Shown here one piece after another: positions 701 to 11,567 of a stretch of 14,138 nucleotides of DNA; within the stretch, counting starts at the first letter, position 1, and every line of letters begins with the position of its first letter. Origin of the DNA: a virus (taxonomy: Duplodnaviria > Heunggongvirae > Uroviricota > Caudoviricetes); the IMG/VR virus record IMGVR_UViG_2690316152_000014; one strand, written 5' to 3'. Both the position numbers and the translations under genes were made by a program. The notes beneath the pieces are model-generated. The model was not told the origin of the DNA. It was given only the letters and a program-made list of their open reading frames with translations, and searched no databases.

Positions 701-1114
701 ATGAAAAAGATTATCGCTGGTATCGTTCTTGCTATGGGTTTGGTTGGTACTGCTAATGCTAATACCTATTATGTGTGTAATTCCTACTTCGAACATAAAG
801 GAGATGATACACGCTACCTGAGTGATGGCGACCGTTATTATCATGCACCGTCTGGAAAATACCGTGGTTTTATCGGTGTAAAGGTTCGAGTGAATGATGA
901 TAATAGTCAATTTGCTTTCAACGATCCGGTATTTGATAGAACAATCAAAAGCCCGAAACTGAAAGAAGATAAGAACGAGAAAGAAGAATATTATGGTTCC
1001 GAAGATGGTAAGTCTTACATCAAATATCTGCATTCTATAGATGGCGCTCCTATATTTGATGTTAAAAAAGGTGATACATCTTATACCCTGATTAGCTGCC
1101 GTGAAATTCTTTAA
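701..1114 (+). CDS. secreted/periplasmic protein of unknown function, with a cleavable signal peptide
   Basis: N-terminus MKKIIAGIVLAMGLVGTANA has an n-h-c signal-peptide layout and an A-N-A signal peptidase I site, with no lipobox. RBS AAGAGGA upstream. Two Cys in the mature part (CNSY and ISCREIL). Confidence 0.7.
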   Translation: MKKIIAGIVLAMGLVGTANANTYYVCNSYFEHKGDDTRYLSDGDRYYHAPSGKYRGFIGVKVRVNDDNSQFAFNDPVFDRTIKSPKLKEDKNEKEEYYGSEDGKSYIKYLHSIDGAPIFDVKKGDTSYTLISCREIL

Positions 1115-1129
1115 TCTTTAATCACCTAG

Positions 1130-1166
1130 CCCCTATCGTTATAATACACGGTAGGGGCGTTTTTGT
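1130..1166 (+). terminator. Rho-independent terminator candidate (loop holds a TATAAT hexamer)
   Basis: Stem CCCCTATCG/CGGTAGGGG (one G-U pair), 10-nt loop TTATAATACA, then CGTTTTTGTTT. Confidence 0.5.
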
Positions 1167-1177
1167 TTGGAAATGGT

Positions 1178-2860
1178 ATGAAAACTAAACTGTATTCGTA
1201 TATTCGCTTCTCTTCCATGAAGCAAGCAGATGGTAGTTCATTTGAACGCCAGAAGAGAACAGCGAAAGAGATAGCCGCAAAATATGATCTTGAGCTAGTT
1301 ACTTCCTATCAAGATTTCGGTGTATCTGCATTCAAAGGAGCTAACAGTAAAACAGGTGCATTATCTCGTTTTCTGGATGAGATTGGTCGATCCGTTCCGG
1401 TTGGTAGCTGGCTGGTGGTGGAAAACTTAGACCGTATCTCCCGTCAATCTGTTATTGAAGCTCAAGAGCTATTCCTTTCAATCATCCGCAGGGGAATAAC
1501 AATTGTTACTGGTATGGATGGGAAGGTCTATAGCAAAGAATCGGTTAATGCTAATCCCATCGATTTACTATTGAGTGTAATGTTGTTTGCTCGTGCAAAT
1601 GAGGAAAGTCAGACTAAACGCAATCGCACTAACTCAAGCGCACTACTCAAGGTTAAAGCCCATCAGGAGAATCCACAAAATCCGGCAGTGGCAATCGAGG
1701 AAATTGGTCGCAATATATGGTGGGCTGATACTTCATCGGGTTATGTGCTTCCACATCCGGTGTATTTTCCTGTTATCAAGAAAATCGTTGAATTAAAACA
1801 GAATGGTTATTCTAATGGTCGGGTTCTTGATTATCTGAATGAAAGAATCACCCCGCCTAATTACACAACGAACAAAGATACCCCTAAGAAATGGGCGCGT
1901 TCTATGTTAGCCAGGATGTTCTCTAACCGCGCTTTGCTTGGTATCAAAGAGATAACCATTGAAGGTGTGACATATGAGTTAAAGGATTATTACCCACGAG
2001 TGATGGAAGATGCCGAGTTCTATCAACTCAAGAAGACTATAGGACTGAGGTCGTTTTCTTATCCCACTAAGTCTAGTCCTGTTATTACCCTGTTAAGTGG
2101 TGCTGGCTTGCTTCGATGTGGTCATTGTGGGGCAAGTATGGTTAAGAGAAGCGGAGCATCAAAAGAGAGATTAGCCCAATATCGTTATATGTGCGATGGC
2201 GCAGATAGCAGGAGGACTAATTGTGATCATCCAAATTGGGGCTTTCGTGGTGATCAACTGGATAAGGCTGTATTGCAATTGCTGGCTGATAAAATCTGGA
2301 TTGCTGAGGATAAGGCTAATCCGATCCCAGGTATGCAAGCCCAGATTGAAGACATTTCACGCAAGATTGATAACCTGATTAGTCTTTCTGCAATGACAGG
2401 AGCAACGAAGGAACTAGCCGATCAGATTACTACCCTGAATCATGAGCGTGAGACCATCTATAACCAGATTAAGGTAATAGAAGAGAACATGTATTCAGTT
2501 GATTCTCAAGGCTGGGAGAAGCTAGCACAATTTGATTTAGAGGATGTTTGCAGCGAGGAACGGTTAAAAGTTCGATTGAAGATTAAAGAAGCTGTTAAGT
2601 CTATAAATTGTTACAAGATTGATACCAATTATAATCATTTTTTAATGGAGTACATCGACGGGAAGACACAAAGGATAGTGATCGAGAGGTCACGCCGTAA
2701 CAGGAAAGGGAGAATTTTTGTAGACGTGAAGACTATCAATGATAGGCAGATTCTGGAGAGCAACGGGCTTGTTCTGCATCCATGTTTAGACATGCTGACA
2801 GATAAGAACTGGAAACCGGAGGAAGAAATACCAGGTCCATTACAGGAATTTGGAATTTAA
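1178..2860 (+). CDS. large serine recombinase (probable phage integrase)
   Basis: N-terminal resolvase-type catalytic motifs: YIRFSSMKQ (catalytic Ser), SFERQ, and LVVENLDRISR. C-terminal zinc-ribbon cysteines (LLRCGHCG ... YMCDG ... NCDH) followed by coiled-coil-like sequence. Start set to the ATG at 1178; the track's 1163 is a TTG. Confidence 0.88.
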   Translation: MKTKLYSYIRFSSMKQADGSSFERQKRTAKEIAAKYDLELVTSYQDFGVSAFKGANSKTGALSRFLDEIGRSVPVGSWLVVENLDRISRQSVIEAQELFLSIIRRGITIVTGMDGKVYSKESVNANPIDLLLSVMLFARANEESQTKRNRTNSSALLKVKAHQENPQNPAVAIEEIGRNIWWADTSSGYVLPHPVYFPVIKKIVELKQNGYSNGRVLDYLNERITPPNYTTNKDTPKKWARSMLARMFSNRALLGIKEITIEGVTYELKDYYPRVMEDAEFYQLKKTIGLRSFSYPTKSSPVITLLSGAGLLRCGHCGASMVKRSGASKERLAQYRYMCDGADSRRTNCDHPNWGFRGDQLDKAVLQLLADKIWIAEDKANPIPGMQAQIEDISRKIDNLISLSAMTGATKELADQITTLNHERETIYNQIKVIEENMYSVDSQGWEKLAQFDLEDVCSEERLKVRLKIKEAVKSINCYKIDTNYNHFLMEYIDGKTQRIVIERSRRNRKGRIFVDVKTINDRQILESNGLVLHPCLDMLTDKNWKPEEEIPGPLQEFGI

Positions 2861-2896
2861 GCGGCCTAAATCGCTGCATAACGAGATAAACGCTTT

Positions 2897-2917
2897 AAGG
2901 GGTACGTACCCCTTTTT
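2897..2917 (+). terminator. hairpin terminator / perfect 18-bp palindrome AAGGGGTACGTACCCCTT followed by T-run
   Basis: Perfect palindrome at 2897-2914 plus TTT, located 37 nt after the recombinase stop. Confidence 0.45.
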
Positions 2918-2929
2918 AATTTAATTGCG

Positions 2930-3925
2930 TTACGCGGCCTCTAAGGGGCTTAAATCAAGTTCTAGGTCTTCCGGTTCCAACTCGGCTAATGGCATTGAGT
3001 GCATCATAGCGAAATCACGTTCTATATCATCTTCGGTTATGTAGTCTTCTGGGTTGATTTCGAAATCAGCATCAAAATATATTGGTTCGGGCGAATTGTT
3101 ATAAATGTACTCCTGTATGAATTTTTTCACATCATCCATTTTGCTGATTGGTAAAGTTTCAGTATAACCACGAGACATTAATTTACGACTAATCCGCTTA
3201 CCTTTGATGTGTTTTTTGATGCCACTTTCTAAATCACCAGCTTTCCAGCCGCAATCAAACGTGTGTGAATATTCAAGGGATAATATTTCATCGGTGTATC
3301 TTTGAGTTTCATACATTCGACGTAGTGGATTTTTGCGCGTAGTTATACCAAATTTTAAAAATTTTTCTCCTACACGAAAAACATAAAAAATAACTGGTCG
3401 ATGTGTATCTTTGTTCATCAAAGCATGTTGTTTCCCGTTTGAAAGAGCAGTTATAGCGCCACGTATAAGAGGACAAGTTAAACTCCCCCGATTACGACTA
3501 CTAAACAAATCGGCTTTGTTGTATATTTTACCATGACAATTACATTTTAGTTTTAGATGGGTTGTTATTCCTCTGTATGGTTCGGCTAGCCCTAAAACAT
3601 CCCAGCCAATCTTATTAAAGAAATTGGTTGAAACTTGTATGTACTCATGTTCTGTATACATGCAAGGTTTCTTATATGTTGGGTGATGGTCTTTTCCTGT
3701 AAACTTACCCATTAAGACACGTTGTAATAAAGGAGTTTTAACTTTATCGCCAACTTTTATATAAACTTTTGTTCGCTGGAATGGCTTATGGATAGGTAGA
3801 ACGAATCCCCCATAAATCCATCCATTAGATTTACATTGGTCAACAACCATTGATTCATATTCAGATGGGCTTTTAGCCGTTGATTTTTTGATGAAAGGAA
3901 TATCTTTAGCAAAAACGGTTTTCAT
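2930..3925 (-). CDS. Cys-rich GIY-YIG-like (T5orf172-like) putative homing endonuclease, paralog A
   Basis: ATG at 3925 with GAGGA RBS. Segment VIFYVFRVGEKFLKFGITT resembles a GIY-x(10)-YIG signature. Cys/His clusters upstream (LKLKCNCHG, LTCPL). Acidic C-terminal tail. Clearly paralogous to the 5053-6090 protein (shared WIYGGFVLP/LIYHGFVMP, KFGIT/KYGIT, GYTET). Confidence 0.55.
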   Translation of the reverse strand: MKTVFAKDIPFIKKSTAKSPSEYESMVVDQCKSNGWIYGGFVLPIHKPFQRTKVYIKVGDKVKTPLLQRVLMGKFTGKDHHPTYKKPCMYTEHEYIQVSTNFFNKIGWDVLGLAEPYRGITTHLKLKCNCHGKIYNKADLFSSRNRGSLTCPLIRGAITALSNGKQHALMNKDTHRPVIFYVFRVGEKFLKFGITTRKNPLRRMYETQRYTDEILSLEYSHTFDCGWKAGDLESGIKKHIKGKRISRKLMSRGYTETLPISKMDDVKKFIQEYIYNNSPEPIYFDADFEINPEDYITEDDIERDFAMMHSMPLAELEPEDLELDLSPLEAA

Positions 3926-3996
3926 AATAGCGAATCCTCATAAATTAAATTCACTATTATTTATTAGTATTTTTCTTGATAATAAAGATTGTTATT

Positions 3997-4668
3997 ATGT
4001 GTGATATTAAAATTAGCTTCATCAATTATAGCCATGTGAAAATTGATTATTCTCCTTCCATTGCAATGGAATTGAGAGATTATTTTAGCTTTGAAGTGGA
4101 AGGAGCCAGATTTAGTCCCAGATACAAATATTCGGGCTGGGATGGTCGTATTAGACTTTTTACCTATGAAAATTTGATGCCTATTGGCTTAGTTCGAATG
4201 GTTAGCGTGTTTTCAAAAAATATGGGTTATAGTGTTTTGATAGACCCTAGACTTTTGGAGCGGGAAAATGTCGATGAAAAGGAAATCGAAAAATGGTGCA
4301 ATGTCCTAGAATTATATTCTGGTGCTAACAGAGTTACCCCGCACTGGTATCAATCAAAAGCAGTCTTTGAAGGTATTCATCATAAACGTAGAATGTTAGT
4401 TCTTCCTACGTCCGCTGGCAAATCTGCTATCGCTTGTATGTTATCTCGTTGGTACTTAGAGAACTACGAAGGCAAAGTGTTGATCATTGTCCCGACGACC
4501 TCGCTTGTTCTCCAGATGCGGGATGATTTTGTTGATTATCGCCAGTTTCCTTATGAAGCTATTCATACTATCATGAGCGGTACTAGTAAGCATGTAGGGG
4601 ATCGCCTGATTGTTGTCAGTACATGGCAATCCGCTTGTAAACAGCCTCGTGAATGGTTTAAACAATAA
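3997..4668 (+). CDS. uvsW: UvsW-like SF2 DNA helicase, N-terminal fragment (223 aa), stops just before motif II; likely a gene remnant
   Basis: Collinear with the T4 UvsW N-terminus as recalled from memory: N-terminal domain, PHWYQ, Walker A LPTSAGKS, YLENYEGKVLIIVPTT, and WQS..KQPREWF. The ORF stops immediately before the expected DECH box. Start set to ATG 3997 (the track's 3976 is TTG). Confidence 0.7.
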   Translation: MCDIKISFINYSHVKIDYSPSIAMELRDYFSFEVEGARFSPRYKYSGWDGRIRLFTYENLMPIGLVRMVSVFSKNMGYSVLIDPRLLERENVDEKEIEKWCNVLELYSGANRVTPHWYQSKAVFEGIHHKRRMLVLPTSAGKSAIACMLSRWYLENYEGKVLIIVPTTSLVLQMRDDFVDYRQFPYEAIHTIMSGTSKHVGDRLIVVSTWQSACKQPREWFKQ

Positions 4669-4697
4669 AAAAGCGCCTACTATGAGGCGCTTTAATT
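4669..4697. terminator. bidirectional hairpin terminator between convergent genes
   Basis: AAAAAAGCGCCT-ACTATG-AGGCGCTTTAATTTTA: GC-rich stem flanked by an A-run and a T-run, between the uvsW fragment stop and the peptidase stop. Confidence 0.55.
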
Positions 4698-5051
4698 TTA
4701 TCCATACCAGCGGGATTTAGTGGAACGGCTATCAATATGGGTAAAGGTTTTATATTTGCCTAAGCCATATTGATTAGGATATTTGCTATCTAGATACGCG
4801 TGAACAATATCAGGCGAGACACCTTTCACTACAATATCTGCGGCCTTGCCCGTGATATGAATCGAACGAGAAGCACCACCAACTTTCTTATTGTGTGCCG
4901 GACAACGGTTAGCACTGTTAATAACTACTGGTTTCCCGAAGTGTTCGCGTACATCCTCAAGAATTGCCAGTAATTCCGCGTCTACGGTATCTTGTCCGCA
5001 CTTTCCACATTTGCATTCAAATTCCTTGCGAGAAAAATGTTTGCTTAACAT
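4698..5051 (-). CDS. peptidase M15-family protein (zinc D-Ala-D-Ala carboxypeptidase-like); possible cell-wall hydrolase
   Basis: Motifs SANRCPAHNKKVGGASRSIH, GKAADI and FTHID fit the H...D...H zinc site of M15 peptidases. N-terminal CKCGKC cluster. Start is 1 nt after the stop of the upstream paralog-B gene, with a GGGGG SD. Confidence 0.6.
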   Translation of the reverse strand: MLSKHFSRKEFECKCGKCGQDTVDAELLAILEDVREHFGKPVVINSANRCPAHNKKVGGASRSIHITGKAADIVVKGVSPDIVHAYLDSKYPNQYGLGKYKTFTHIDSRSTKSRWYG

Positions 5052-5052
5052 A

Positions 5053-6090
5053 TTACCCCCTATATGTAATTTTATAGTTGTTGGAGTTTTTACAAAAATC
5101 CATTGCCATTTTTCTAATCTGCGCTTCTTTGGTTATGTCACATGTTTCTGTATATCCGTCTGGGATTAGTTCTTTTGGTGCAGCGTGACTTCCTATGTTA
5201 TGTTTTACGGAATATTCTAGGTCATTGGCAACTTTTCCGTCACCGAAAGTTATATACCACAATAACTTGTGAGATAATCCTGACTCTCTTGATTGTTGTG
5301 TGATTCTCTTTTGTGGGTTTAGGTGATTTGTTATTCCATATTTGATATAATCGCCTACTTGCTGGACATAGAAAACACCTGGTTTACTTTTGTTATACCC
5401 ACTCTTAGAACAGCACGGACAACCATCGTTTTCGTAAACCAAACCATACGCAACAATAGTATCTGATATATGGCCTTTTTCACACTTTAGTTTTAGTTTT
5501 GACATAGCCAAAATTGGGGATTTAGGTCGTTTTATTAATTTGAGTCTCTTTTCTTTGCACCCGTCTTCAATTAATCCCAACCATTCGTCGTCTGTGTGCT
5601 TTCTCTTATTAATTCCTCTCTTAATTGACCCACAATGACGGCACCCAGCATCATTGTTTATGATTCTTGTGATTATCGTTTCGTATGTGGTGTTACAACA
5701 AGTGCATTTATATGATGCCTTTGTATCAAGCCCTTTATATTCTTCCAACAAACCAACTAAAACCATCTCTTTACGTTCTAATACATTGCTTGCTTTGGTG
5801 AGAATGGTTTCTTCGTCTCTATTATTTTTCTTTGGTAGTTTTAAAGAATCTCTATAACATTCAATACAAGCACCTTGTTTCTTAAGGGATTTGAATACTA
5901 TCGTTCTTGATGTGTTGTGTTTTTTGCAAGTTACATAAACGTGTGTATATTGACCTTTCCACGGCATGACGAAGCCATGATAAATCAAACCTAATTCACC
6001 ACATCGTTTAATTGCAATTGTTTCATAGTCGTGCGGAGTTTTTCTTTTGAATCCGGTGTAATCGATATATTCAGCAAATAAAACTTCCAT
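5053..6090 (-). CDS. Cys-rich GIY-YIG-like (T5orf172-like) putative homing endonuclease, paralog B
   Basis: Three Cys-rich modules (KRCG..VTCKKH..CIEC; KCTCC..GCRHCG; LKCEKGH..GCPCC), then GVFYVQQVGDYIKYGIT (GIY-YIG-like) and DGYTET. GGGGGA SD upstream of ATG 6090. Confidence 0.55.
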   Translation of the reverse strand: MEVLFAEYIDYTGFKRKTPHDYETIAIKRCGELGLIYHGFVMPWKGQYTHVYVTCKKHNTSRTIVFKSLKKQGACIECYRDSLKLPKKNNRDEETILTKASNVLERKEMVLVGLLEEYKGLDTKASYKCTCCNTTYETIITRIINNDAGCRHCGSIKRGINKRKHTDDEWLGLIEDGCKEKRLKLIKRPKSPILAMSKLKLKCEKGHISDTIVAYGLVYENDGCPCCSKSGYNKSKPGVFYVQQVGDYIKYGITNHLNPQKRITQQSRESGLSHKLLWYITFGDGKVANDLEYSVKHNIGSHAAPKELIPDGYTETCDITKEAQIRKMAMDFCKNSNNYKITYRG

Positions 6091-6100
6091 TAGTCCCCCA

Positions 6101-6128
6101 AATAAAAAAGCGACCGAAATTGGTCGCT
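6101..6128 (-). terminator. Rho-independent terminator ending the post-J cassette
   Basis: On the minus strand: stem AGCGACC/GGTCGCT with loop AATTTC, followed by TTTTTTATTT. Confidence 0.6.
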
Positions 6129-6142
6129 TGTATTTATTCGAG

Positions 6143-6490
6143 TTAAATGTATTGTAGAAGATACCCGGTAAAGCGGAGTCCCTTGATATAGTAGTTAGTA
6201 GTGCCTAGACATACCGCTCGTGTATCGCCAATACAATTGAAGTTGTAAGGATTAACTACATCAATCTCCTGCCCTACACGAAAGCGATACTTAGGACGTT
6301 TAGCGAGTGTCGCAACACAAAACACTAGCCCGTTACCATCATCGCGGATCATCTGCTTGAATTGTTTATGTTGGACTCTCTTCGCCTCAAAATCATAGGT
6401 CATTGATTCAGGGCTAATGCCATTGATAAAAATACCGGAAAGCTGATCGACCGGATAAGTAGGAAATTCAGTGAAAATATTTTTAGCCAT
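6143..6490 (-). CDS. hypothetical protein (115 aa)
   Basis: ORF with a GGGGG SD 7 nt upstream of ATG 6490. Last gene before the terminator. No motif recognised. Confidence 0.55.
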   Translation of the reverse strand: MAKNIFTEFPTYPVDQLSGIFINGISPESMTYDFEAKRVQHKQFKQMIRDDGNGLVFCVATLAKRPKYRFRVGQEIDVVNPYNFNCIGDTRAVCLGTTNYYIKGLRFTGYLLQYI

Positions 6491-6529: not shown

Positions 6530-7213
6530 TTAAACGTATTTCATGCGTGATTTAATGTGCTTATTGATATGTTCAAGCATCATTACTTCGTTGCTTTCCC
6601 ACGATCCTAGCGTCGAATAACGAGTAGAAATTTTATCCGACTTAACGGCAACAATTCGCTTACTCTGTTTCTGTGTGCGTTTCTCTAAGCGACGTTTTGC
6701 CACCGCCGATCCATTCTTAGCGCGTTTGGTTCGGGATTTCTTAGGCTTGTACTTCTTCATGATAAAAGTCCCTTCCTGGTTCTCTACCTTGATGAAGTTG
6801 CCGTTTTCGATGTTACGCATCATCTTACCGCCTTTGATGGCCTTAATGTTCCCGTGAGAGTCTAAGACCTTACCGTTAGCGATTGGCACTAGCTTATTGA
6901 TTTTGCCACCATCGAAATAGTGTTTCAGATAGTCGTCCTGACTGCCGATCTTCTTGTCCTTATCCCTTGCTCCCTTGATGAAGATTTGGTGTCTGGTCCC
7001 TGATCGGTTCTTGTAGTTGGTATTGCCTACCGCTTGCTGAGTCCATCGAGTAGGTCTATCAACATTCTTGTTAATCTTCTTCTGGAGTGCTCTGGAAGCA
7101 AAGATCGCCCCTTCCCCTATCGCCTTTTCGAATGTATCGGTTGCCTTATCAGTCCATTGGCGTAACGCTTTCTTAGTCCTTAGAGCGTTTCGTTTATTGG
7201 TACTGATTGACAT
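6530..7213 (-). CDS. hypothetical highly basic protein (227 aa, Lys/Arg-rich)
   Basis: GGGGGG SD. Start is 1 nt after the stop of the 56-aa ORF. Long K/R-rich stretches (KKYKPKKSRTKRAKN, KRRLEKRTQKQSKR) suggest nucleic-acid binding or a virion-internal role. Confidence 0.6.
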   Translation of the reverse strand: MSISTNKRNALRTKKALRQWTDKATDTFEKAIGEGAIFASRALQKKINKNVDRPTRWTQQAVGNTNYKNRSGTRHQIFIKGARDKDKKIGSQDDYLKHYFDGGKINKLVPIANGKVLDSHGNIKAIKGGKMMRNIENGNFIKVENQEGTFIMKKYKPKKSRTKRAKNGSAVAKRRLEKRTQKQSKRIVAVKSDKISTRYSTLGSWESNEVMMLEHINKHIKSRMKYV

Positions 7214-7787: not shown

Positions 7788-10700
7788 TTAACGAATAGAA
7801 ATACCAGAAGTGGCTTTTTTAGCGACCATCACAACAACATCGGTCGCACTACCCGATCTACGGGTTGAAACAGGCCATGCTTTAAACTCTAAAGTCACGC
7901 TACCCTTACCCGCTGGCATGTCTATAACGCTACTGTATGCAATAGGTATTGGTCCGCCTGATTCTAATGCTTTCAGTAAAGTACCATTTTTACGCACTTC
8001 TAAACGCATACGGCTATACCCGGTTCTGCCCGGATTATCACCAGTTCCTGCAATATCGTATTCAGCGCCAGCAACAATAATTGGCGGAATGATGATTTGA
8101 CGGTCAAATTTATGGTCATCATTGATCGTTACGGTAACAGCACCATCAGGAACACCAGCATCACCTAAAGTAGCAGCACCACGAGGAAACGCCTTAGATA
8201 CAGTCTTAACAAAATCACCGCGTACCTGAGTAGCTTCTAACATACCCTTAATAACACAGGATTCGTTAATCGTGACGTTGTTCAGAGTACCGGAATCAGC
8301 CGTGATATTACCTTTGATTTTGGCATTCATGAACGTAGCGGACCCGTTCTTGTTGATATGCCATCCGGTAGATCCGTTCCAGTTGGAAGACTGGATATAG
8401 TTACCGATTTTAGCGTTATCAATTGCACCGTTTACAATCTTGGCGTTAGTGATCGCCCCGTCCTGAATCTTCGCGCTATTAATTGCAGCATTGCCGATTT
8501 TAGCCGTGGTGATTGCCGCATCAGTAATCTGGGCTGTGCCGATTGAGGCATTACGGATCATGGACCAGTCCATATACACCTTGTTTCCTTCGACACCAAA
8601 CGGAACAACACCCGCCGCGCCATCCTGTGGAGCTACCACCAGCTTATCAGCCGTAAAGATGATTTTAGTCGGTTGTGCCGGATCGTTAGTTGCGCTCATG
8701 TGAATACCAGCCACACGACCATCTGCATTAACTGCAAGATTGTATTTGCTGTTAATGGTTCCCTTCAAAGCATCGATCTTAACGTCCGCTTCTTGGTTAA
8801 CACCAGCAATCTTGCCATCCATTTCTACCCGAACTTGATCAATCTTACTTGCGCTTGCTGCCTCACTGGTTGCAATTGCTTGTTTCAGGGTAGTAGCAGA
8901 TGCGCTAACTTCTTTGGTGATATCACCTTTCAATTCAGCTTTAACCTGATCAATCTTAGTGGAGCTAGCTTGATCACCAGAGACAATCAGACTCTTAAGA
9001 GTATCGGCTGAGGCTTGGACCGTCTGTCCTGTTTCAGTAGTGATTTGCTTGTGCATTGCATCAATTTTAGCATCGGCATTTTCGCCAGCTTGAGCAATAG
9101 CATCAGCGATAGTTTCATCTAAGCGATCTTGTAAACCAATCAGGTCTTCCAGTGCTTCTTTGTCCTGATCTTCCCAACTAATCGAAGATTTCATAGACAT
9201 GAAATACGGTTCAGACCAGACAGCATCATCCATGCCGAAAATATCGTAGTGAGCACCACGGATATAATAATCACCATCAGCCAAATCAAAGGAAGTATGG
9301 CTAACACTATTCGTGCTTACTGCCCTTGCATCGGAGAAAGTGTTATCGGTTGCATACTGGATGATTGACCCTGCATAGTCATGTTCTACGTCATCTGTCC
9401 AGCTAACAAACGCAGTATTAAAGCCACCACGCGCACTAAAACCTTTCATCGGCTTATGCTGTGGGTTGATAGCCACTAAACGCGCTGGGGCGCTCTCTGA
9501 GTTGTTATATCCTTTAACCGATACTTCCACCGTCAGTTGACGCGAAAGGCCGTTAAACTGGTTCATATCAAGCGTATAAGTCCATGATTCAGGATCGCGG
9601 GTACGGTACTGAATAGACTTACCAGCCTTGTTAGTAACCTTGATAATGTATGCTTCAAACAGGTCACTAAACTTGTTAGCTTCGCCGTTGATCATCACAT
9701 CTAAGCCTTGCTGGTTATCCCATTCGATAATCAGATCATTACCTTCGAAAGTGCCAGCCGTGCTACCCTGATTTTTGATTCGAATAGTCGGAGTCGGCAA
9801 TTCATAGGTAACAGTAGGATTCTGGTTAATCAGTTCTACCCAATCGGATCGCGCGATGATACCGAAAGCACAAATACGGTAATCGTAAGAACGATCTTTA
9901 GCCAGTGCATTGACATTGAAGATTTGCTGTGAAGTCTGACCCAGCTTAATCCAGTTAGGTGATCCGCTTACACGATAATCAATCTGGAAACCATAACGGT
10001 TAAAATCTTCCGGTGCATCCCATGTCAAAGTAACGTTTTTACCGTAAATCGTCTCGCCAGTTGCCTTAATTCTGAAATTAGTAGGCTTCTGTACTGTCAT
10101 TGAATCCGGTAAACCACTTGGTCTATTGTCTGGAGTTGCCGCATAGTTCAGGTCAGTATAAACCTGAGAATTATATTCTGTAGCGGTGATAGTCATCATC
10201 CCAGCAATACCAGAATCAATCGAGCGATCAATTGCGGTAATACGCCATAAAGAATTATTCAGTTTTAATTCATCATAGGTTACGCTAATAACATCCCATA
10301 CTTCGGCAGTGAATGCGTCAGTAGTCATAAAGCTGATAACCTGAGTGATACGAGATTTATTTCGTTCAATGCTCGCTAGTTTATCAATCTGGTCTTTAGA
10401 CTTAACGAAACGATATTCTACATCCTTAGCAATAATTCGACCATCTGCGCGAACAGTAGCATCGTTTTCAGCATCAGCCGGATAACGTAGCATTTGCTCC
10501 GAATAGTCGATTGATGGTTCTTGATATACCGCGTTAATGGTATTGAAATAACCGTTAGTACCACCAGTTTTAAGGGATACTTTACCCATCATAATATTGT
10601 CTTCATTGAAGGTATGCTTAACAATATCAGGAGCATCCAGTTTCAGAGTAATTCTTCCGAAGGATTCGAACATTACCCCGCCGAAAGTCTGCATTAATCC

Positions 10701-11567
10701 GGTTAAGTTCTCTTTAAAGCTGGCGTTCGGATCACATGCACCGTTTGAATGTAGATCCATCTGGCGTACTTGTTTACGCACTTTCAGGAATGAATCAACG
10801 TTAATGTTTTCAATTGGTACACTAAGACCATATTTTGTATTTGTCAGATAATGGAAAATCTGATCCACGCCGTTAGTGCTTGCCTCAATAGCATTGGTTT
10901 CAAGGTTACGGATTTTAAGGCCGCAAACGTCTACTGTTACCTGGCTATTCGTTTGCAGAATATCAACACCAGCAGCCAGAGATTTGTCATCACGGCGTAA
11001 AACAATACACATGGTCGCAATACCGTTACCCTTGTAAGCATCGGTCCAGTCTGAGCCTAAATGATGTTTAGCCAGTGACAATGCGGTGTTAGGATTCTTA
11101 CCCGTGCGAAACTCAACTTCTAAAACTTTGCGGTATTCGTCTTTAATGTTGCCCTTATCGAGTACACCATCACGGATCGTCATGTTCTTACCGACCAACA
11201 CATTTTTATTATCGATAAAGAGTGCTTTGTAATGGTCGATTTCACCCTCTGCAACAGAAAAGATTTGCACTAACTTATTGTTTTCTTTCTTAGAAATAGC
11301 TTTGTAAACGCAGTTTGTGCCAGTACGGGTAACACCAAAAAGAACGGGTACTACTGTTTTTGGATCGGTTGATGTTCCTAGTGTCACCGCATTATCTGGG
11401 CTTTGTACTTTAGGCGTTTTTGGCGTAGCAGCTACGGAAGCAATCAAGGTCATTGCACCAGCAGCCATACCGATAGCAACTGCGGTCATAACAGAGAATG
11501 TTGCAGCAGCAGCCATCCCAGCAGATGCACCCGCAATAACCGCACCTACTAATACTTCAATTCCCAT
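7788..11567 (-). CDS. lambda J-like central tail fiber / host specificity protein (1259 aa) with an N-terminal extension resembling the C-terminus of tail assembly protein I
   Basis: Size and position after the K-like gene. C-terminal ~200 aa match my recollection of the lambda J receptor-binding region (SGTLNNVTINE, DDHKFDRQIIIP, VIDMPAGKG, VVVMVAKKATSGISI). N-terminal Gly/Ala-rich hydrophobic segment and VVPVLFG motif resemble the gpI C-terminus. ATG at 11567 overlaps the upstream stop (TAATG). Confidence 0.85.
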   Translation of the reverse strand: MGIEVLVGAVIAGASAGMAAAATFSVMTAVAIGMAAGAMTLIASVAATPKTPKVQSPDNAVTLGTSTDPKTVVPVLFGVTRTGTNCVYKAISKKENNKLVQIFSVAEGEIDHYKALFIDNKNVLVGKNMTIRDGVLDKGNIKDEYRKVLEVEFRTGKNPNTALSLAKHHLGSDWTDAYKGNGIATMCIVLRRDDKSLAAGVDILQTNSQVTVDVCGLKIRNLETNAIEASTNGVDQIFHYLTNTKYGLSVPIENINVDSFLKVRKQVRQMDLHSNGACDPNASFKENLTGLMQTFGGVMFESFGRITLKLDAPDIVKHTFNEDNIMMGKVSLKTGGTNGYFNTINAVYQEPSIDYSEQMLRYPADAENDATVRADGRIIAKDVEYRFVKSKDQIDKLASIERNKSRITQVISFMTTDAFTAEVWDVISVTYDELKLNNSLWRITAIDRSIDSGIAGMMTITATEYNSQVYTDLNYAATPDNRPSGLPDSMTVQKPTNFRIKATGETIYGKNVTLTWDAPEDFNRYGFQIDYRVSGSPNWIKLGQTSQQIFNVNALAKDRSYDYRICAFGIIARSDWVELINQNPTVTYELPTPTIRIKNQGSTAGTFEGNDLIIEWDNQQGLDVMINGEANKFSDLFEAYIIKVTNKAGKSIQYRTRDPESWTYTLDMNQFNGLSRQLTVEVSVKGYNNSESAPARLVAINPQHKPMKGFSARGGFNTAFVSWTDDVEHDYAGSIIQYATDNTFSDARAVSTNSVSHTSFDLADGDYYIRGAHYDIFGMDDAVWSEPYFMSMKSSISWEDQDKEALEDLIGLQDRLDETIADAIAQAGENADAKIDAMHKQITTETGQTVQASADTLKSLIVSGDQASSTKIDQVKAELKGDITKEVSASATTLKQAIATSEAASASKIDQVRVEMDGKIAGVNQEADVKIDALKGTINSKYNLAVNADGRVAGIHMSATNDPAQPTKIIFTADKLVVAPQDGAAGVVPFGVEGNKVYMDWSMIRNASIGTAQITDAAITTAKIGNAAINSAKIQDGAITNAKIVNGAIDNAKIGNYIQSSNWNGSTGWHINKNGSATFMNAKIKGNITADSGTLNNVTINESCVIKGMLEATQVRGDFVKTVSKAFPRGAATLGDAGVPDGAVTVTINDDHKFDRQIIIPPIIVAGAEYDIAGTGDNPGRTGYSRMRLEVRKNGTLLKALESGGPIPIAYSSVIDMPAGKGSVTLEFKAWPVSTRRSGSATDVVVMVAKKATSGISIR
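8395..8545 (-). repeat. in-frame tandem short repeats inside the J-like gene, encoding (D/N)(A/G)AI(T/N)x-AKI(G/Q/V) units
   Basis: Protein segment TAQITDAAITTAKIGNAAINSAKIQDGAITNAKIVNGAIDNAKIGN. Matching DNA repeats of GCCGATTTTAGC / CGCGAAGATTCAGGA type were read by eye; coordinates are approximate. Confidence 0.45.

Follow-up and report, generated by a model that had tools for sequence, protein, structure and literature searches.

Two putative T5orf172-type homing endonuclease genes around a helicase gene fragment in a temperate Escherichia coli siphophage

Layout of the locus

Here, we describe two putative homing endonuclease genes in a 14,138-nucleotide stretch of DNA from a virus of the Caudoviricetes (IMG/VR record IMGVR_UViG_2690316152_000014), hereafter the window, i.e., the whole stretch that was analysed. 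The window is the integrase-proximal end of a temperate siphophage genome, an Escherichia coli prophage, and is 99.97% identical to the E. coli draft assembly GCA_040034705.1. An initial annotation made from the sequence alone listed two open reading frames (ORFs) of 331 and 345 amino acids (aa) on the minus strand, at 2930-3925 and 5053-6090, and both are present as claimed. They are located in an accessory region that has the serine recombinase gene on one side and the tail/lysis genes on the other; its features are as follows.

1163-2860, plus strand: large serine recombinase gene
2897-2914: hairpin/terminator 3' of the recombinase gene, left border of a variable slot, kept in L002, L004 and L005
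2930-3925, minus strand: 331-aa gene, T5orf172-type putative homing endonuclease
3997-4668, plus strand: truncated UvsW-like helicase gene, 223 aa counted from ATG
4670-4693: bidirectional hairpin/terminator downstream of the M15 gene, right border of the variable slot, kept in L003, L004 and L005
4698-5051, minus strand: M15 peptidase (endolysin-like) gene, backbone (Pfam Peptidase_M15_3, 1e-29; PHROG endolysin, 1.3e-44)
5053-6090, minus strand: 345-aa gene, T5orf172-type putative homing endonuclease
6143-6490, minus strand: small gene g115, 115 aa, no match in Pfam

The gene order is 331-aa gene, uvsW fragment, M15 peptidase gene, 345-aa gene, so that the initial picture of two genes bracketing a helicase remnant holds loosely, as an intact M15 gene sits between the remnant and the 345-aa gene. 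Related E. coli prophage loci (L002-L005 and L008-L015, L003 being the prophage of E. coli EC24) were used for comparison; their backbone is 80-98% identical, and they differ in the region described here. Frequencies were surveyed in 5,426 complete E. coli genomes, 56 of which carry the prophage backbone.

Domain architecture of the two proteins

The two proteins had been proposed as paralogs. They are homologous over the full length (BLASTP E=4e-15), and because the identity is 25%, they are distant members of one family rather than recent duplicates. The motifs quoted in the initial annotation are found in both: VFYVQQVGDYIKYGIT is aa 238-253 and GYTET aa 312-316 of the 345-aa protein, and IFYVFRVGEKFLKFGIT is aa 178-194 and GYTET aa 253-257 of the 331-aa protein. 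The domains assigned in this work are as follows.

5395-6048, minus strand: three zinc-finger modules of the 345-aa protein (aa 15-84, 89-160 and 163-232); relatives match DUF4379 (97/147) and CapR (95/147)
5071-5394, minus strand: GIY-YIG-like nuclease domain of the 345-aa protein (aa 233-340), with Y241, K250-x-G252, R262, E292 and G312-YT-E315-T316
3461-3880, minus strand: two alpha-beta-beta-beta-alpha DNA-binding modules of the 331-aa protein (aa 16-155), from predicted secondary structure, module alignments and a sub-threshold match to Pfam CapR
3098-3400, minus strand: GIY-YIG-like (T5orf172/MUG113-like) domain of the 331-aa protein (aa 176-276), with Y181, K191-x-G193, R203, E233 and G253-YT-E256-T257

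Repeated Cys/His modules, as initially described, are seen in the 345-aa protein, where the ligands form three sets (C55/H58...C75/C78, C129/C131...C150/C153 and C203/H207...C224/C226-227); in the 331-aa protein there is a single set, in the second module (C128/C130/H131...C151), and the first module has lost its zinc ligands. The 331-aa modules align to the 345-aa modules with z=10.1 and 7.5. The CapR homology domain is the sole Pfam match in direct scans of both proteins: CapR (PF21817) matches two stretches of the 345-aa protein (4.3e-7; 30.4 bits, above the gathering cut-off of 24.2), and the match of the 331-aa protein (E=0.0028; 18.2 bits) is under the same cut-off. Among the relatives, DUF4379 is a treble-clef zinc finger, and DUF723 is matched by 15 of the 147. 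The CapR domain, a zinc-finger DNA-binding domain, occurs in CapR, a repressor encoded by a Vibrio satellite, as well as in the phage ICP1 proteins that are putative T5orf172 homing endonucleases (PMC8096241). These matches support the assignment of the Cys-rich N-terminal parts as predicted DNA-binding modules of the CapR/DUF4379 zinc-finger type.

The C-terminal segment was initially noted to resemble GIY-YIG or T5orf172 domains, and this resemblance is borne out by the predicted fold, by the conserved Tyr, Arg and Glu, and by the Pfam matches of the relatives. AlphaFold2 models built from a 20-sequence alignment (mean predicted local distance difference test scores, pLDDT, of 81.8 and 86.2) have three alpha-beta-beta-beta-alpha modules in the 345-aa protein and two in the 331-aa protein, followed in both by a beta-beta-alpha-beta-alpha-alpha domain, i.e., the alpha/beta fold of GIY-YIG proteins (beta-hairpin, helix, strand, helix). 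Word-indexed homolog searches gave few relatives (6, 14 and 8 proteins), and it was an exhaustive search of representatives that revealed the family: a profile of the C-terminal domain matched 1,617 cluster representatives at E<=0.001, 452 of them at E<=1e-10, and in the best 150 of the 1,617 matches the domain is located at or near the C-terminus. In the alignment of 147 relatives (345-aa numbering), K250, G252, R262, E292, G312, E315 and T316 never vary, and conservation of Y241 is 90% or more. At E<=0.01, 65 of these relatives match MUG113, 39 match T5orf172 and 20 match GIY-YIG. PHROG 681, annotated as endonuclease, matches both proteins (1e-42 and 5e-19), and two family proteins of related slots match the Pfam models themselves, i.e., a 193-aa protein of L003 (T5orf172, 4.5e-4) and a 391-aa protein of L011 (MUG113, 3.9e-6). 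When PDB sequences were compared with the domain profile, the GIY-YIG protein 1zg2 was the sole match; the E values are marginal (0.09 and 0.036), and the Tyr, Arg and Glu of 1zg2 line up with those of the domain. Taken at the level of sequence and predicted structure, the data support a GIY-YIG-superfamily domain of the T5orf172/MUG113 kind, in which the conserved Tyr, Arg and Glu are presumably catalytic, and the idea withstands the refuting conditions that the initial annotation set for it. Nuclease activity of a T5orf172 domain has been shown for Odn and needs its conserved Glu, as the E180A mutant is inactive (PMC8263062).

A precise insertion site for the 345-aa gene

Comparison of empty and filled sites allowed the boundaries of the 345-aa gene insertion to be placed as follows.

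5062-6156, minus strand: insertion carrying the 345-aa gene, 1,095 bp, in place of 11 bp (TAGATCATTTC) of the empty site
6108-6129, minus strand: hairpin and T-run carried by the insertion, just 5' of the Shine-Dalgarno sequence (GGGGGA) of the 345-aa gene, missing from empty sites

The 115-aa gene lies on one side of the insertion and the Shine-Dalgarno sequence of the M15 gene on the other. L003, L004 and L005 have the site empty, and L002 and L008-L015 have it filled, i.e., there is a presence/absence polymorphism at one precise site in otherwise collinear genomes. The empty site is compact, with the stop codon of the 115-aa gene 9 nt upstream of the M15 start, and the junction in an L005-type prophage reads ...GAAGATATAACC / TTAGATCATTTC / ATTACCCCC.... 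The 345-aa ORF runs out of the insertion, so that its last codons and stop are in target DNA (ATTACCCCC) and its TAA falls within the Shine-Dalgarno region of the M15 gene; on the other side, the last five codons of the 115-aa gene are altered by the insertion. This g115-M15 junction is a defined candidate target site for an uncharacterised nuclease family.

It was also observed that the identity to related prophages drops near the insertion, to 79-80% in the M15 gene and 84-85% in g115, and is 95-96% one gene away, in g227. The same gradient of flank divergence holds for prophages without the 345-aa gene and for L002, which has a diverged 345-type allele.

6530-7213, minus strand: small gene g227, 227 aa, no match in Pfam and a faint match to PHROG 'minor tail protein'

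Distribution, composition and selection

Among the 56 backbone-bearing complete genomes, 345-type genes are found in 3 (one of them interrupted by IS2) and 331-type genes in 19, and each type is found without the other (L002 and L003). The idea of a nuclease pair therefore fails, as the two genes occur independently. Both genes have 36% G+C, compared with 41-44% in the backbone and neighbouring genes, and both are missing from most related prophages, which contradicts the earlier impression that they are long-resident. The family as a whole is dispersed over many loci and genomes: tblastn with the 345-aa protein found relatives in 316 phage records at 400 places, several of them at variable sites. 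Slots of related prophages may hold more than one member, i.e., 332-aa and 193-aa family genes in L003, and three members (391, 189 and 345 aa) in the single slot of L011, and likewise of L012. As to their placement, the 189-aa ORF of L011 (8915-9484), with CapR and a weak T5orf172 match, has its end abutting the start codon of an intact uvsW, and the 391-aa CapR-CapR-MUG113 gene (9640-10815) lies beside the recombinase gene; L012 is arranged likewise in both respects.

The 345-aa gene was compared with its L002 allele (3569-4606). The ratio of nonsynonymous to synonymous substitution rates (dN/dS) is 0.10 for the whole gene and 0.07 for the nuclease domain, the lowest in the gene, at a dS of ~0.9, and these ratios indicate that the gene is under purifying selection. 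The dS is uneven along the gene, 0.41 in the nuclease domain and 1.1-1.9 in the three zinc-finger modules, which suggests recombination within 345-type genes, i.e., domain mosaicism.

These values bear on a different view, that the two proteins are nuclease-dead DNA-binding regulators similar to CapR of PLE, with the zinc fingers acting and the C-terminal domain catalytically inert. CapR is a domesticated family member acting as a repressor, and the authors of PMC8096241 remarked on non-canonical motifs in the family; moreover, the 345-aa gene is directly upstream of the lysis-type M15 gene and has its own terminator hairpin. However, the 147 relatives show no or almost no variation at the Tyr, Arg, Glu and terminal Glu positions, it is the nuclease domain that has the lowest dN/dS, and CapR is without a nuclease domain, whereas both proteins here retain the whole domain. 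We consider a purely regulatory role quite unlikely.

The slot of the 331-aa gene

The 331-aa gene lies within the slot framed by the two conserved hairpins (2897-2914 and 4670-4693), and part of its coding sequence belongs to the border.

2930-2977, minus strand: last 15 codons (EPEDLELDLSPLEAA) and stop of the 331-aa ORF, backbone DNA, present in prophages without the gene

By blastn, window positions 2858-2977 match L005 3001-3124 and also L002, and the EPEDLELDLSPLEAA tail ends a 65-aa ORF in L005 and is left as a remnant in L002. As a separate observation, this acidic C-terminal tail (E-P-E-D-L-E-L-D-L-S-P-L-E-A-L/A) is conserved in all proteins of the 331 family, which are otherwise 38-57% identical; it may serve in protein interaction, or may be no more than a fixed border of recombination. 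On the other side of the gene, the intergenic region 3926-3996 has no recognisable homology to the inh-uvsW spacer of Krischvirus.

Decay and loss are visible in the family. In one assembly (L013, 8166-9161), a single G-to-T change turns Gly119 of the 331-aa gene into a stop codon, which is either gene decay or a sequencing error; a 345-type copy is interrupted by IS2, as said above; and L004 has at ~3135-3160 a 7-codon ORF (MKLAYAA*) with a Shine-Dalgarno sequence at the position of the 391-aa gene of L011, which looks like a near-precise deletion scar fusing the first and last codons of the gene. Apparent deletion scars are seen in the slots of L004, L002 and L005.

One may then ask if both genes are inert remnants, i.e., decaying relics of past invasions without present activity. 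The nonsense allele, the IS2-disrupted copy, the scars and the absence of zinc ligands from the first module of the 331-aa protein are in line with this. Against it, the window and several independent assemblies have both ORFs intact, dN/dS is as low as 0.10 at a dS of ~0.9 between the window and L002 alleles, and the catalytic-type residues are conserved across the 331 family in spite of identities of 38-57%; such inertness of both genes is, in our opinion, very improbable.

The uvsW fragment

The helicase fragment matches Pfam UvsW_N (1.3e-33) and ResIII (1e-11). The UvsW N-terminal domain and Walker A are still there, and the sequence breaks off immediately ahead of motif II (DExH); compared with the full-length prophage uvsW of 496 aa (L004, L011 and L012), the fragment is without ~820 bp of the 3' part.

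4660-4677: deletion/recombination joint, uvsW ...AAACAA joined to TAAAAAAGCGCC of the right slot border

The joint has an AACAA microhomology with the border sequence TAACAAAAAAGCGCC of L004/L005. The initial annotation had suggested that homing endonucleases disrupted uvsW. Homing-endonuclease-like behaviour stands, given the insertion polymorphism and the family, and the disruption does not: neither gene is inside uvsW, the joint is exactly at the conserved right slot border on the side away from the 331-aa gene, and L011 and L012 have a 100% identical 345-aa gene together with an intact 496-aa uvsW. Insertion of a homing endonuclease gene into uvsW is thus ruled out by the junction analysis and by L011/L012, and, because the joint is at the slot border and uvsW is intact in these two loci, the truncation is best seen as a separate deletion or illegitimate-recombination event. 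It is possible that this event went through a nuclease-induced break and microhomology joining. The uvsW allele of the window gave no megablast match in the 5,426 complete E. coli genomes.

Krischvirus DNA in the slot

In its identity to virulent RB49-like phages (Krischvirus), the uvsW fragment is mosaic. Its first ~300 nt are 55-77% identical to Krischvirus per 60-nt window, similar to the identity with the prophage allele of L004, and the remainder is much closer to Krischvirus.

4297-4666, plus strand: uvsW patch up to the deletion joint, 82-95% identical to Krischvirus uvsW and 58-80% to L004 (60-nt sliding identity)

This patch has megablast matches in 55 Krischvirus records, and the full-length uvsW of L004 and L011 is 77-79% identical to Krischvirus. 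A second Krischvirus gene is found in the slots of other prophages, i.e., inh, a head gene (inhibitor of prohead protease) that adjoins uvsW in Krischvirus. L003 has at 4201-4615 a 415-nt internal inh fragment with 98.8% identity to many RB49-like phages and a T5orf172-type gene on either side; L005 has a 70-nt inh remnant (3117-3186) that is 90% identical to Krischvirus; and L002 has a short inh remnant (3175-3205). At such identity, the L003 fragment is evidence of a recent transfer of DNA from a virulent T4-like phage to a temperate phage. The presence of inh and uvsW fragments at identities from 77% to 98.8% indicates repeated recombination between the temperate phage, resident or induced, and T4-like phages, some of it recent. 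Judged from these matches, the slot is built from DNA of virulent RB49-like phages (inh and uvsW), which is a new observation.

The prophage nuclease genes are set apart from this DNA, as they have no close Krischvirus homolog and no nucleotide-level match was found outside inh and uvsW; the high identity is confined to the inh and uvsW DNA on their flanks. Together with the protein identity of 25-39%, this rules out the prophage homing endonuclease genes as recent imports from Krischvirus. The uvsW fragment itself would be a piece of helicase gene acquired from Krischvirus, separately truncated, and since then recombined with Krischvirus.

A relative of both proteins does occur in Krischvirus. 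The 361-aa gene of phages Whisky and JK32 (QZI94019.1 and QEG05484.1), absent in Brandy, is an optional, free-standing gene between uvsW and uvsW.1, co-oriented with and downstream of an intact uvsW. Among phage proteins, its product is the one that best matches the 331-aa protein (33-39% identity, E=1e-19), and it also matches the 345-aa protein strongly (26%, E=1e-21). The relationship in sequence is distant, and at the nucleotide level the gene has no similarity to the prophage genes.

This context makes a role in phage-phage conflict worth weighing, in which domesticated nucleases would cut superinfecting Krischvirus, e.g., at inh-uvsW, and the Krischvirus DNA of the slot would be a by-product or a substrate. 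The Krischvirus-derived DNA (the uvsW patch at 82-95%, the L003 inh at 98.8% and the L005 inh remnant) is compatible with it, as are the location of the genes in an accessory region beside the integrase gene, the dN/dS of 0.10 of the 345-aa gene, and the fact that the closest phage relative of the 331-aa protein, which is also among the closer ones of the 345-aa protein, is the homing endonuclease gene adjoining uvsW in Whisky and JK32. There are also precedents of conflict proteins derived from homing endonuclease genes, namely Odn, CapR and NixI. On the other hand, the PADLOC defence-system models match neither protein (marginal matches were obtained only for neighbour genes in related slots), no Krischvirus target site was found, the prophage and Krischvirus homing endonuclease genes are just 25-39% identical, the nuclease genes are missing from most related prophages, and the insertion site of the 345-aa gene is unrelated to Krischvirus DNA. 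The defence or exclusion role that had been offered as a second option is thus without direct support, and we regard the conflict role as unlikely.

A broader proposal is that the slot is a standing interface for DNA exchange with virulent Krischvirus, in which inh/uvsW is repeatedly overwritten (patches of 85-98.8%) and up to three nucleases make the breaks or cut the invader; we put it forward as speculation and hold it to be doubtful. If it were true, homing nucleases carried by prophages would mediate gene flow, or else exclusion, between a T4-like myovirus and a temperate siphovirus. We consider the genomic context of more interest than the genes themselves, as the slot appears to be a site of recurrent exchange with T4-like lytic phages, and it offers a concrete natural case in which to ask whether the limits of genetic exchange between unrelated phages are marked by nuclease genes.

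Two probable homing-endonuclease-type genes

Taken together, we consider it probable that the 331-aa and 345-aa ORFs are independent, optional, AT-rich, free-standing homing-endonuclease-type genes of the T5orf172 branch of the GIY-YIG superfamily, and that the uvsW fragment is not their insertion target. The N-terminal zinc-finger modules would bind a long asymmetric DNA target, and the C-terminal GIY-YIG-like domain would cut nearby using the conserved Tyr, Arg and Glu. An allele without the gene would thereby be cut, and when the break is repaired from a genome that has the gene, in a co-infected cell or once a prophage is induced, the gene would be copied along with the sequence that flanks it.

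Several points weigh against this assignment to homing-endonuclease-type genes. In the Pfam/NCBIfam scan, neither protein matches T5orf172 (PF10544), MUG113 (PF13455) or GIY-YIG (PF01541) at E<=1. A Foldseek search of the 331-aa model against PDB gave nothing significant, and hhalign of the domain profile against the catalytic domain of I-TevI (with an approximate I-TevI sequence) gave a probability of 1%. In the 331-aa protein, Phe takes the place of the second Tyr of the classical YIG motif; T5orf172 proteins generally carry K-x-G at this position. The 'empty' alleles of the 331-type gene resemble deletion scars and not virgin sites, so that gain by homing is conjectural for this gene. The strong purifying selection exceeds what a purely selfish, decaying element would need and leaves room for a function useful to the phage. 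Finally, cleavage, target sites and copying by repair are inferred steps of the homing mechanism.

The closest known systems are the putative T5orf172 homing endonucleases of ICP1 (e.g., gp165/gp174) and of T5-like, Aeromonas and Vibrio phages (PMC10448857; Netter et al. 2021, PMC8096241), which have the same architecture of zinc-finger module(s) followed by a C-terminal T5orf172/GIY-YIG-like domain. In this class, repeated CapR, DUF723 and DUF4379 zinc fingers have been described as 'beads on a string' (Barth, Dunham & Seed 2023, PMC10448857). The likeness extends to genomic behaviour, i.e., variable presence, insertion next to genes or between them, alleles in decay and several copies in one genome, and to signs of domain mosaicism, seen here in the dS of the 345-aa gene. 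The described genes are from virulent phages, whereas those reported here are in a temperate, integrated E. coli siphophage; unlike them, both proteins here are too divergent to match the Pfam T5orf172 model, and the 331 family has a conserved acidic C-terminal tail encoded by backbone DNA. Odn (ICP1 gp88; Barth et al. 2021, PMC8263062) likewise has a nuclease domain of T5orf172 type with conserved Arg and Glu. It is an origin-directed nuclease with site-specific cutting shown (E180A inactive; PMC8263062), whereas the proteins here have CapR-type zinc fingers. SLX1 and At-HIGLE (PDB 7wme, 6seh and 7cq2) are related at the superfamily level only (11-19% identity), and differ in being eukaryotic structure-specific repair nucleases, which have a RING/PHD domain as partner domain and SLX4 as partner protein. 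The GIY-YIG homing endonucleases of T4 (I-TevI and SegA-G) are modular, site-specific and spread by double-strand-break repair, and I-TevI has a small zinc finger.

Both proteins can now be annotated as T5orf172-class homing-endonuclease-type nucleases, putative in activity, with CapR-type zinc fingers. As this class was described in 2021-2023 mainly from virulent Vibrio, Aeromonas and T5-like phages, its presence in a temperate E. coli prophage widens its known range.

Neighbouring genes

Promoters of the 331-aa and 345-aa genes were searched for with a sigma-70 promoter scan, in which the count of sites was no higher than in shuffled sequence. Upstream of g227, on the minus strand, the window continues into tail genes.

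7788-11567, minus strand: lambda-J-like tail-tip gene, then more tail genes

At the other end of the region, a 137-aa ORF (701-1114, plus strand) lies 5' of the recombinase gene; it matches no PADLOC family, has a signal-peptide-like N-terminus (MKKIIAGIVLAMGLVGTANA), and may be a secreted or lipoprotein moron.

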